DNA of 41,110 bases from Escherichia coli. GTDB lineage: Bacteria > Pseudomonadota > Gammaproteobacteria > Enterobacterales > Enterobacteriaceae. The notes under the pieces were generated by a model. The model had not been told where the DNA came from, did not search any database, and saw only the letters and a program-made list of their open reading frames with translations. The stretch is from assembly GCF_003334315.1 (NCBI RefSeq), contig NZ_QOWR01000045.1. One strand, 5' to 3'. Below are positions 18,187 to 18,636 of this stretch, piece by piece. Every line of letters starts with the position of its first letter. Position 1 is the first letter of the stretch. Made by a program: the position numbers and the translations under genes.

Positions 18187-18215
18187 ATCAGGACGTAAAA
18201 AAACCGACTTTGCGT
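18187..18215 (-). terminator. Hairpin flanked by A7 and T6; likely terminator of the agrA sRNA
   Basis: AAAAAAACCGACTTTGCGTCGGTTTTTT read directly. On the minus strand the hairpin is followed by a T-run. Confidence 0.5.
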
Positions 18216-18280
18216 CGGTTTTTTACTTTCCAGCCCTGAGTTGGTGGCACTGGCTGGAGTGAGAATGCCATTATCTAACG
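18187..18280 (-). ncRNA. agrA: agrA-like small RNA (antisense RNA paralog of the dinQ region); boundaries approximate
   Basis: Contains one copy of the roughly 24-nt repeat GGAGTGAGAATGCCATTATCTAAC that recurs at about 18463-18486, and ends at the hairpin plus T-run terminator. Placement follows my recollection of the arsR-gor intergenic organisation. Confidence 0.35.
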
Positions 18281-18343
18281 CATCAATGCTAATACCATAC
18301 TGAAACTATTGCAAGGACATGCTGGTTTTATAACCTGAATGTA

Positions 18344-18359
18344 CTGTATGATTATCCAG
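18344..18359 (+). promoter_or_regulatory. LexA box (CTG-N10-CAG) in the dinQ promoter
   Basis: TACTGTATGATTATCCAGTT read directly. It fits the SOS box consensus and sits upstream of dinQ. Confidence 0.5.
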
Positions 18360-18399
18360 TTAGCTCTGAGGCATTTTCACTCTGGTAATGCGCATAAAC

Positions 18400-18500
18400 G
18401 CTTTCAAAGTCCTGGTCAGAAGTACGGGTGGTGCCGTTAACTGATGCTCTGGCCGGAGTGAGAATGCCATTATCTAACAATAGGGCATGCGCCGTGACAG
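18400..18500 (-). ncRNA. agrB: agrB-like antisense small RNA overlapping the dinQ 5' UTR; boundaries approximate
   Basis: Second copy of the GGAGTGAGAATGCCATTATCTAAC repeat located between the LexA box and dinQ, and opposite in strand to dinQ. The transcript ends were not determined. Confidence 0.3.
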
Positions 18501-18552
18501 GCAGTGGATGAGTAAGCGGATGCATTCTCACTCCATCGCATGGAGAAAACGG

Positions 18553-18636
18553 GTGATTGATAAAGCAATCATCGTTCTTGGGGCGTTAATTGCGCTGCTG
18601 GAACTGATCCGCTTTCTGCTTCAGCTTCTGAACTGA
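18553..18636 (+). CDS. dinQ: Type I toxin DinQ (27-aa membrane peptide), GTG start
   Basis: GTG ATT GAT AAA ... AAC TGA encodes MIDKAIIVLGALIALLELIRFLLQLLN, a single hydrophobic helix, downstream of a LexA box. It is too short to appear in the ORF track. Confidence 0.65.
   Translation: MIDKAIIVLGALIALLELIRFLLQLLN

Follow-up and report, generated by a model that had tools for sequence, protein, structure and literature searches.

The dinQ/agr locus between arsR and gor

We examined the interval between arsR (17691-18044, minus strand) and gor (18690-20042, minus strand) in a 41,110-nucleotide stretch of Escherichia coli DNA (contig NZ_QOWR01000045.1; hereafter, the window). The interval measures 645 bp, compared with 876 bp in K-12, and its plus strand carries a 27-aa coding sequence with a GTG start (18553-18636, stop included). 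The encoded peptide, (M)IDKAIIVLGALIALLELIRFLLQLLN, scored 54 bits against the NCBIfam equivalog model NF041472 toxin_DinQ (cutoff 30) and is identical to K-12 DinQ, which places it among the small, hydrophobic, single-transmembrane toxin peptides of the DinQ family. Its 27 codons form the C-terminal portion of a 49-aa ATG open reading frame (18487-18636). Strain E2863 is 100% identical over the region, and RefSeq annotates arsR, dinQ (WP_001295215.1) and gorA there; the region was matched in 5423 of 5426 complete E. coli genomes, with dinQ annotated beneath the match. Downstream of the coding sequence, a 14-bp bidirectional hairpin (18653-18683, both strands; inverted repeat I3, also found as a terminator-like site) is the predicted terminator of dinQ on the plus strand and of gor on the minus strand. 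The dinQ terminator has been placed just beyond the gor stop codon (PMC3567139).

Upstream of dinQ lies a LexA operator (SOS box; 18342-18361, plus strand) formed by the 20-mer TACTGTATGATTATCCAGTT, which K-12 carries unchanged at the same position and which contains a CTG-N10-CAG core at 18344-18359. The bare core occurred 25 times in the window (7.2 expected) and was dropped as evidence for a LexA site, being uninformative alone at that frequency. The extended pattern TACTGTAT-N7-CAGT was matched exactly only once across the window, at this box; with one mismatch allowed, the sole further match was at 38461-38479 (0.09 expected at that tolerance). A published study gives the primary dinQ LexA operator an HI of 4.83 (PMC3567139), which we took to refer to the 20-mer at 18342-18361. 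Our operator call draws on the identity of this 20-mer with K-12 and on the published HI. The operator overlaps both the putative dinQ -10 element (TATGAT, 18347-18352, plus strand) and the start at 18359, so that in sequence it overlaps the dinQ promoter, with LexA binding and induction as predictions. The same study reports a second, weak LexA operator for K-12 dinQ (HI 13.82; PMC3567139). Alignment to K-12 revealed two substitutions in the promoter region, A for G at 18317 and A for C at 18338, which might alter this weak operator.

We set +1 of dinQ at G18359 by carrying the Kristiansen 2016 (PMC5066626) numbering over to the window, and all anchors fit this position: G1, G5, A40, G88, G94, A119, U167, U178, A182 and the Shine-Dalgarno (SD) residues G184-G187. 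The predicted primary transcript (18359-18690, plus strand) is about 330 nt long and ends just past the terminator hairpin; the published length is likewise ~330 nt (PMC3567139). Its predicted fold has a minimum free energy (MFE) of -128.3 kcal/mol (z = -5.72). A generic promoter and terminator scan of the window missed both the dinQ and the agr promoters, which fall below its 9/12 threshold, and left the agr terminator unflagged, its U-tract having been counted as part of the stem. A minus-strand promoter-like site at 18380-18351 from the generic scan was regarded as a chance match (1 found, 1.3 expected).

The original prediction had placed an SOS-inducible dinQ/agr system between arsR and gor, with a 27-aa, GTG-started DinQ downstream of a CTG-N10-CAG SOS box. 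Each of these elements was borne out: the peptide by its family score, its identity with K-12 and the E2863 annotation, and the box by the extended-pattern match and the K-12-identical operator. The system itself, an SOS-inducible membrane toxin with an antisense RNA, has already been described.

The agr antisense RNA and its probable target

The sequence GGAGTGAGAATGCCATTATCTAAC is present in exactly two copies in the window, at 18256-18279 and 18455-18478 (0.01 chance matches expected). Over 33 nt (18247-18279 and 18446-18478) the two copies are still 94% identical; they are direct repeats on the plus strand, the first upstream and the second downstream of the LexA box. Two repeats of roughly 24 nt had been predicted at about 18254-18278 and 18463-18486; like the other features described, they exist in the sequence, but their coordinates needed small shifts, of about 2 and 8 nt.

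The first copy is part of an antisense sRNA gene of 82 nt (18197-18278, minus strand), whose 5' end at 18278 was placed by alignment to the K-12 agrA annotation. The gene is divergent from dinQ, does not overlap it and matched Rfam family RF02891 (AgrB) over the full model (104 bits at 18195-18278, minus strand; gathering score 40; model positions 1-84 of 84). The predicted sRNA fold (-26.8 kcal/mol, z = -4.34) leaves residues 1-20 at the 5' end unpaired, followed by a stem-loop (18258-18229) and a terminator hairpin with a U-tail (18224-18197; inverted repeat 18198-18208 / 18214-18224). A putative promoter at 18286-18314 on the minus strand consists of a -35 element (TTGCAA, 18314-18309), a 17-nt spacer and a -10 element (TAGCAT, 18291-18286); it agrees with the consensus at 8/12 positions and leaves 7 nt between the -10 element and the start at 18278. 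The sequence at 18279-18314 is identical to that upstream of K-12 agrA, the start site of which was mapped experimentally (PMC3567139).

The second copy (18446-18478) lies 87 nt 3' of the dinQ transcription start. Since the published numbering fits with +1 at 18359, the repeat spans G88-A119, where AgrB binding has been mapped; published work describes this repeat as the antisense RNA binding site on the dinQ mRNA (Weel-Sneve 2013, PMC3567139; Kristiansen 2016, PMC5066626). The corresponding target site in the window is 18446-18477 on the plus strand (+88 to +119), which includes element 2 of the dinQ leader (18452-18464).

The original prediction read the two repeats as the antisense genes agrA and agrB, as in K-12. 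Both copies do have the identical 24-nt core, and the second gave a weak AgrB alignment as a minus-strand candidate at 18392-18477, although at 23.8 bits (E = 0.51) it stayed below the gathering score of 40. This alignment covered only about the first 30 model positions, with the stem-loop and terminator parts mispaired or absent, and neither inverted-repeat nor terminator scans found a terminator-like site in 18380-18446. Moreover, the second copy sits within the dinQ leader, downstream of the LexA box, and aligns column for column to the dinQ-internal "agrAB repeat" of K-12, whereas a 231-bp unit holding the second sRNA gene of K-12 is absent from the window. AgrB matches above the Rfam threshold numbered one in the window and two in both K-12 and strain TD225-C4. 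Its position, its sub-threshold score, its alignment to K-12 and the missing terminator ruled out the second copy as an sRNA gene, and the reading of both copies as genes is highly improbable. Alignment to the published dinQ-agrAB locus had been named as a check on the prediction, with failure of the repeats to correspond to agrA and agrB as the outcome that would count against it; this is the outcome that we obtained for the second repeat. The two copies are, in all likelihood, the seed of an sRNA and its target. For annotation more generally, a repeat copy in such a locus may be an antisense RNA gene or the target of one, and the two can be told apart solely by position relative to the promoter and by the presence of a terminator.

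The seed region of the sRNA (18247-18278, minus strand; repeat family D1) is complementary to dinQ mRNA +88 to +119. In the window, 30 of 32 positions form Watson-Crick pairs, 23 of them contiguous from the sRNA 5' end, with 2 mismatches and a predicted duplex energy of -53.6 kcal/mol, which agrees with the ~31-34 nt of 5'-end complementarity to G88-A119 known for this family. The corresponding K-12 energies are -58.2 kcal/mol for AgrB:dinQ and -42.7 kcal/mol for AgrA:dinQ. In K-12, AgrB:dinQ is functional, and AgrA neither binds nor represses dinQ in vitro (PMC5066626).

These K-12 data raise the alternative that the single sRNA of the window is a degenerate, non-functional relic resembling AgrA, which would leave DinQ unguarded or controlled by LexA and the intramolecular lock only. 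The gene does occupy the K-12 agrA slot, judging by its flanks and promoter, and K-12 AgrA is inert towards dinQ in vitro. However, K-12 AgrA fails because of its mismatches with the K-12 target, to which it forms 25 Watson-Crick pairs and 4 G.U pairs with 3 mismatches, whereas the target in the window carries the matching allele and pairs as described above. In addition, the target allele tracked one agr copy of the same genome across 17 haplotypes, and 0 of 10,000 phylogenetically uncorrected permutations did as well. We therefore consider the relic reading very unlikely. The pairing argues instead that the surviving sRNA is, with high probability, the cognate and near-perfectly matched antitoxin of the dinQ allele in the window. 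Taking anatomy, homology, complementarity and predicted folds together, we conclude that the region 18197-18690 very probably represents a single-antitoxin version of the E. coli dinQ/agr type I toxin-antitoxin locus.

Deletion of agrB in K-12 raised AgrA 9.5-fold (PMC3567139), a rise that suggests that AgrA is kept lower in wild-type cells. The sole antitoxin of the window would run from a promoter of the agrA type.

Predicted folding and control of the dinQ leader

In the published model of the dinQ 5' UTR (PMC5066626), element 1 pairs with element 2 and thereby locks the full-length mRNA, and element 3 pairs with either element 2, leaving the SD free, or element 4, closing it. All four elements could be located on the plus strand of the window. 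Element 1 spans 18374-18386 (+16 to +28), and in the MFE structure of the window allele the lock helix is longer, pairing +12 to +28 with +94 to +110 over 17 bp compared with 13 in K-12. Element 3 (18522-18536) corresponds to +167 to +178, extended 5' to 18522. Element 4 and the SD (GGAG, 18542-18545) occupy 18540-18545 and would be sequestered in a CUCCAU-CGC-AUGGAG hairpin. Both this hairpin (173-178 / 182-187) and the 1:2 lock are present in the MFE structure of the full transcript.

The processed, translatable dinQ mRNA of K-12 begins at +44 (PMC3567139, PMC5066626), equivalent by coordinate transfer to 18402 in the window. From this position to +202, the 5' UTR alone was predicted to fold with the 2:3 duplex, which comprises 13 perfect base pairs (18455-18467 with 18522-18534; inverted repeat I2, 13 nt, 100%), as against 10 with an interrupted extension in K-12; the predicted energies are -24.7 and -19.3 kcal/mol, respectively. 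For the whole +44 RNA, enforcing the 2:3 duplex costs 0.8 kcal/mol over the MFE; the open SD is absent from the unconstrained MFE structure, in which the SD hairpin stays closed. Because of this closed SD, we do not claim the switch from folding alone. The open state is suggested by the near-isoenergetic alternative together with published SHAPE data on the K-12 allele, and with this qualification the window sequence is predicted to support the four-element switch, in which elements 1 and 2 lock the mRNA, elements 3 and 4 close the SD and elements 2 and 3 form the open state.

We propose the following mechanism. A LexA-repressed promoter would drive dinQ from 18359 on the plus strand, yielding a full-length mRNA that would be silent, with 1:2 pairing freeing element 3 to shut the SD with element 4. 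Loss of the first 43 nt, giving a 5' end at about 18402, would release element 2 for element 3 and open the SD, allowing translation of the 27-aa inner-membrane DinQ from the GTG at 18553. The constitutive, divergent sRNA, transcribed over its 82 nt from 18278 to 18197 on the minus strand, would bind through its unpaired 5' end to dinQ +88 to +119 (18446-18477), capturing element 2, shutting the SD hairpin again and yielding a substrate for RNase III. The transcription starts, the processing at +44, control by LexA, toxicity and cleavage by RNase III are all ascribed to the window by analogy with K-12, in which DinQ toxicity and membrane depolarisation, sRNA repression with RNase III cleavage, and +44 processing come from experiments (PMC3567139, PMC5066626).

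The proposed control resembles that of tisB/istR-1 of E. coli, with which dinQ has been compared (PMC5066626). Both systems have a LexA-controlled small membrane toxin, an inactive primary transcript activated by 5' processing (+42 in tisB, +44 in dinQ) and a divergent sRNA whose pairing site lies far upstream of the SD and whose binding leads to cleavage by RNase III. Their sequences, however, are unrelated. IstR-1 acts by occluding a ribosome standby site; for AgrB, the proposal is that it captures element 2 and so closes the SD hairpin again (PMC5066626). The dinQ-like (dql) genes on Enterobacteriaceae chromosomes and plasmids resemble dinQ both in their 5' UTR architecture, built on four mutually exclusive elements, and in the small hydrophobic peptide that they encode (Kristiansen 2016, PMC5066626), but the locus in the window is the true dinQ orthologue at the arsR-gor site and not a dql paralogue.

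Probable loss of an agr unit and allelic variation across Escherichia

The window agrees with K-12 dinQ-agrAB (PMC3567139, PMC5066626) in its arsR-gor site, DinQ peptide, LexA 20-mer, SD hairpin, element 3, coding region and terminator, as well as in the fold and Rfam family of its sRNA and the pairing of the sRNA 5' end to mRNA +88 to +119. It differs in the number of repeats: K-12 has three copies (agrB, agrA and the dinQ target), whereas the window has two, with one 231-bp agr unit missing from the alignment. Consequently, the tandem agrA and agrB genes found upstream of dinQ in K-12 were not present in the window, in which the one remaining sRNA gene has the promoter side of the agrA slot. 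T1TAdb records AgrA only "in some bacterial strains" (PMC8594479), and two tandem agr genes are therefore not family-defining. Target and seed also carry a different allele, AATGCCAT in the window and GAGTTCT in K-12.

Strain TD225-C4 has no substitutions relative to the window in 951 nt outside the 231-bp indel. Together with ST2350, RM13752 and Z1323PEC0010, it has two agr copies, with the dinQ target allele and the agrA-slot sRNA as in the window. The extra agr unit of these four strains is arsR-proximal and has a seed of the K-12 agrB type, which pairs poorly with their own dinQ targets (6-7 mismatches, -41 to -37 kcal/mol). The two units in the TD225-C4 comparison have a 54-nt identical terminator segment in common, at which unequal crossover could have removed one of them. 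Relative to these two-copy relatives, the window strain most probably lost one 231-bp agr unit, as judged from the aligned sequences.

Recombination at this locus can go further. An agr repeat is fused to the dinQ repeat in roughly 15% of E. coli genomes, ST131 among them, and neither promoter nor the LexA box survives this fusion. Expression of the locus appears to have been lost altogether in a substantial minority of clinical lineages, ST131 being one example. Given such fusions and three repeats that are clearly recombinogenic, the locus in the window could be seen as a decaying remnant in which dinQ is no longer expressed and the 231-bp loss is one step of erosion. However, its LexA box, -10 element, elements 1-4, SD, GTG, 27 codons and terminator are all intact and identical or conservative with respect to K-12, and its 651-bp haplotype was found at ≥99% identity in 462 complete genomes, which makes decay extremely improbable. 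An intact locus with a single antitoxin remains our preferred reading.

We analyzed the distribution of the target alleles among the 5426 complete E. coli genomes, of which 1803 contained an exact window-type allele and 1672 the K-12 type. Across 21 sampled Escherichia genomes, the target allele co-varied with one agr copy; at least five target alleles were found, each matched through Watson-Crick or G.U pairs to one agr copy of the same genome. The cognate copy was the promoter-proximal one, in the "agrA" slot, in most sampled non-K-12 haplotypes, including those with the window-type allele, and this slot held the sole copy in B2 strains and in the sampled single-agr outgroups (E. albertii and Escherichia sp. 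E1V33). E. whittamii has two agr units. Such tracking of target and agr copy would be expected if pairing were selected for, or under concerted gene conversion. We lean towards the view that the agr repeats, comprising two seeds and the dinQ target, form a small concerted-evolution system that may generate strain-specific "specificity alleles" of toxin and antitoxin. If so, the textbook description of AgrA as a degenerate, non-functional duplicate and of AgrB as the antitoxin would hold for the K-12 lineage specifically, and the mismatched second copy of many strains would be an orphan sRNA that can be lost, as in the window, or that acts elsewhere.

The K-12 rule that AgrB is functional and AgrA inert probably cannot be transferred by gene position to many other E. 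coli lineages, in which the best-matched copy of the genomes sampled lies in the agrA slot. Apart from the T1TAdb remark on AgrA (PMC8594479), we found no description of this slot swap or allele co-variation in the literature searched. The result should be of moderate use for work on type I systems and on SOS-linked persistence.

An exact-pattern scan of genome contigs returned nine loci; E. fergusonii and Salmonella were not recovered by the scan with that pattern. One locus, labelled Bacillales (L019), matched the pattern but had no locus features. Another, from an uncultured-bacterium bin (L016), had a target of the K-12 type, and a single agr unit could be seen ahead of the end of the contig. 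A metagenome-assembled genome labelled Lachnospiraceae (L015) carried a locus of the window type, a placement that probably reflects mis-binning.

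Identity and layout of the dinQ locus

In the window, the dinQ spacer is bordered by arsR on the left (17691-18044, minus strand) and gor on the right (18690-20042, minus strand), and measures 645 bp, compared with 876 bp in K-12. The predicted 27-aa, GTG-started peptide is present: the dinQ coding sequence occupies 18553-18636 on the plus strand, with 27 codons encoding (M)IDKAIIVLGALIALLELIRFLLQLLN. The peptide is identical to K-12 DinQ at every residue and scored 54 bits against the NCBIfam equivalog model NF041472 (cutoff 30). Moreover, strain E2863 is 100% identical at the locus, where RefSeq gives the order arsB, arsR, dinQ (WP_001295215.1), gorA. 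These results confirm the identification of the locus as dinQ. Among complete E. coli genomes, 5423 of 5426 matched the 651-bp region, always on the chromosome and with dinQ and gorA annotated beneath, and 462 matched this query at ≥99% identity.

The dinQ locus has already been described (Weel-Sneve et al. 2013, PMC3567139; Kristiansen et al. 2016, PMC5066626). Since the system is published and RefSeq annotates dinQ on this exact sequence, the finding as a whole, covering system, mechanism and location, is already known. The region is very probably a dinQ/agr type I toxin-antitoxin locus in a one-antitoxin form, in which the second of two repeats is the target of the sRNA.

The predicted SOS box, CTG-N10-CAG, was found at 18344-18359 within the 20-mer LexA box TACTGTATGATTATCCAGTT (18342-18361, plus strand). 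The bare motif occurs 25 times in the window and is hence uninformative alone; the extended form TACTGTAT-N7-CAGT gave one exact match, and one more with one mismatch at 38461-38479. The LexA box overlaps both the putative dinQ -10 element TATGAT (18347-18352, plus strand) and the presumed transcription start, G18359. This is the sole plus-strand position fitting the published numbering, under which G1, G5, A40, G88, G94, A119, C120, U167, U178 and A182 all agree and the Shine-Dalgarno (SD) sequence G184-G187 falls at 18542-18545. Along the plus-strand 5′ UTR follow the mutually exclusive pairing segments, namely element 1 (18374-18386), the agr target including element 2 (18446-18477, +88 to +119), element 3 (18522-18536) and element 4 with the SD (18540-18545); the equivalent of +44, where the processed, translatable K-12 mRNA begins, is 18402. 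A bidirectional terminator hairpin at 18653-18683 is common to dinQ and gor.

Several minor features were observed around the promoters. In the divergent dinQ/agr promoter region, the window differs from K-12 at 18317 (A for G) and 18338 (A for C), substitutions that could affect a second, weak LexA operator (HI 13.82) described in K-12. A minus-strand promoter-like GTGAAA-18-GATAAT lies over the LexA box at 18351-18380; it was the sole match in a generic scan with 1.3 expected and is probably due to chance. A 59-aa GTG ORF (18352-18531, minus strand) runs antisense to the dinQ 5′ UTR, and some RefSeq genomes carry a "hypothetical protein" under the dinQ match, with a 57-aa minus-strand CDS in two comparison loci, L007 and L024. 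An antisense ORF over this structured 5′ UTR is probably an annotation artefact.

Assignment of the two repeats

The 24-mer GGAGTGAGAATGCCATTATCTAAC has exactly two copies, at 18256-18279 and 18455-18478 (0.01 expected by chance), and the repeat can be extended to 33 nt at 94% identity. The original prediction had found this pair, with coordinates off by about 2 nt and 8 nt, and had read it as agrA plus agrB. Its locus identification holds, but its assignment of the repeats does not. The Rfam AgrB model (RF02891) was covered end to end by 18195-18278 on the minus strand, scoring 104 bits (gathering score 40). The second copy (18392-18477) reached a sub-threshold 23.8 bits (E = 0.5); its first ~30 positions alone aligned, with neither stem-loop nor terminator in the Rfam alignment. 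Alignment of the spacers revealed three repeat copies in K-12 (agrB beside arsR, a central agrA and a third within dinQ), showed that exactly one 231-bp unit is absent from the window, and paired the window's second copy with the dinQ-internal one. This third K-12 copy has been termed "the agrAB repeat of dinQ" and is antisense to both agr transcripts, agrA and agrB (PMC3567139), and AgrB binding was mapped to G88-A119 of the dinQ mRNA (PMC5066626). The second repeat in the window corresponds to +88 to +119 of the dinQ transcript, 87 nt past the start site and ~100 nt past the LexA box, and is therefore the sRNA target rather than an sRNA gene. Full-score AgrB hits numbered two in K-12 (108.4 and 106.2 bits), two in TD225-C4 (108.4 and 104 bits) and one in the window, the model being unable to tell agrA from agrB.

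The single agr sRNA is 82 nt long (18278 to 18197, minus strand). In its predicted fold (-26.8 kcal/mol, z = -4.3), the 5′ 20 nt are free of pairing, and a stem-loop precedes a terminator hairpin that ends in a U7 tail. Its putative minus-strand promoter comprises TTGCAA, a 17-nt spacer, TAGCAT and 7 nt to the start. The segment 18279-18314 is identical to the sequence upstream of K-12 agrA, the start of which was mapped by primer extension (PMC3567139).

Predicted RNA switch and allele

In the published model (PMC5066626), element 1 of the full-length dinQ RNA pairs with element 2 while elements 3 and 4 form the SD hairpin, leaving the RNA untranslated; loss of the first 43 nt lets element 2 pair with 3, opening the SD so that DinQ is made. 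In that model, AgrB bound at +88 to +119 sequesters element 2, so that the SD hairpin closes again, and gives rise to a substrate for RNase III (PMC5066626). The window's 334-nt primary transcript folded with both the 1:2 lock and the SD hairpin in its minimum free energy (MFE) structure (-128.3 kcal/mol, z = -5.7), and the isolated 5′ UTR from +44 to +202 was predicted to form the 2:3 duplex. For the whole +44 RNA, the MFE structure has the SD hairpin closed, and forcing 2:3 costs only 0.8 kcal/mol. By analogy with the K-12 work, LexA control, processing, toxicity and RNase III cleavage would apply at the window locus as well.

The sRNA 5′ end and its dinQ target are predicted to form 30 of 32 pairs, 23 of them contiguous (-53.6 kcal/mol); values for K-12 were -58.2 for AgrB, the active pair, and -42.7 for AgrA, which in vitro neither altered the SHAPE pattern of +44 dinQ nor repressed translation. 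In the window, target and sRNA seed (the 5′ antisense region) are both GAGAATGCCATTATC, whereas in K-12 the target and agrB are both GAGAGAGTTCTTATC and agrA is GAGATAGCCATCATC. The toxin mRNA and its antitoxin have thus changed in concert. The predicted lock helix spans 17 bp in the window (+12 to +28 with +94 to +110) and 13 bp in K-12, and the activating helix has 13 perfect bp (-24.7 kcal/mol) compared with 10 bp plus an interrupted extension (-19.3 kcal/mol). On these models, the window allele would fit the invariant elements 1 and 3 better than the K-12 allele.

Variation and origin of the locus

We examined architecture in 60 evenly spaced genomes among the 5423 matching. Two agr units (span 879-884 bp) were found in 42, a shortened locus (419 or 450 bp) in nine, the window's one-copy form (651 bp) in five, a B2-type one-copy form (618 bp) in three and a disrupted locus (246 bp) in one. 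An exact copy of the window-type dinQ target (64-mer) was present in 1803 of 5426 genomes, compared with 1672 for the K-12 type.

Alleles were compared in 21 sequenced examples (17 haplotypes, five target alleles), and every target found its best match in an agr copy from the same genome. This copy sat in the arsR-proximal agrB slot in K-12, ATCC 43886, FDAARGOS_1286, 2EC1 and O169:H41, and in the promoter-proximal agrA slot in TD225-C4, Z1323PEC0010, ST2350, RM13752, O157:H7, 21a, 4973 and E69; in E. whittamii the agrA slot was best by 0.2 kcal/mol, and in O145:NM the slots tied. The mean penalty was 1.65 within the own genome and 3.63 when the genome had another target allele. Not one of 10,000 permutations performed equally well, an indication rather than a probability since the test disregards shared ancestry. 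On balance, we lean towards specificity alleles under concerted evolution, the antitoxin usually occupying the agrA slot. The allele and slot pattern is a modest by-product of this analysis. A literature search of limited scope found no description of target and seed alleles that vary together, of a cognate copy in the agrA slot in lineages other than K-12, or of fusions that delete promoters. T1TAdb remarks that AgrA occurs in some strains only, choosing the sRNA by the most stable predicted interaction (PMC8594479); copy-number variation is therefore already known in outline.

Apart from the 231-bp indel, the window and TD225-C4 showed no substitutions over 951 nt. The TD225-C4 agrA-slot copy equals the window's sRNA, whereas its agrB-slot copy carries the K-12 agrB seed, with 6 mismatches to its own dinQ target (-41.3 kcal/mol). 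A 54-nt terminator segment is identical in both TD225-C4 units, and unequal crossover there could delete one unit. A single agr copy is likewise present in E. albertii, Escherichia sp. E1V33, E. coli SCPM-O-B-8794, E2348/69 and APEC O18, so one copy is probably ancestral; E. whittamii already has two units. The window probably represents a secondary return to one copy, both directions coming from parsimony, not a tree.

In the shortened loci (ST131, EC5931 and CFSAN018748), the one repeat present is a hybrid, bordered by the agr terminator on its left and by the dinQ 5′ UTR on its right. These fused loci correspond to window 18256-18478 and lack the agr promoter(s), dinQ promoter and LexA box, which recombination between an agr repeat and the dinQ repeat has deleted. 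DinQ carries L15Q in ST131 and EC5931, the two fused genomes sequenced. The shortened loci, still dinQ in RefSeq, look transcriptionally dead. We take E2348/69, APEC O18, ST131 and EC5931 to be phylogroup B2; in these and O145:NM, arsC rather than arsR is annotated on the agr side and the match starts from base 34, and arsR and arsB appear to be missing from these lineages.

The locus of E. coli 88-3493 (2025-3246) has two agr units and the LexA box, but where dinQ is expected it passes into an IS element encoding an InsQ/TnpB-family RNA-guided endonuclease; the query matched this genome at three places. A 1061-bp contig of a Lachnospiraceae MAG carries the window's agr seed, LexA box, target repeat and SD/DinQ sequences and is probably mis-binned E. 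coli DNA; a Bacillales MAG contig matched a 21-nt pattern but had none of the locus features. Escherichia sp. MOD1-EC7003 (~5179) has a dinQ-like ...IVKAIIIPGVLIVLLKLIRFLLQLLN with GGG where the GTG start is expected; the 1.1 kb upstream of it showed neither an agr repeat nor a LexA box nor an agr terminator, and the copy could be a dql paralogue or a pseudogene.

Elsewhere in the window, 12809-15776, between slp (11755-12486) and arsC (15910-16335), holds three ORFs: one of 327 aa with no match in the NCBIfam search, a permease-like ORF of 337 aa whose similarity to the Cu/Zn efflux and SaoE families is below threshold, and a divergent ArsR/SmtB-family regulator of 119 aa. K-12 may have a different set of genes in this interval. 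Rfam gathering-score hits, all on the minus strand, were GadY (1308-1421, 150 bits), ES205 sRNA (7200-7271, 105 bits) and ES036/CssrF (27057-27097, 42 bits).
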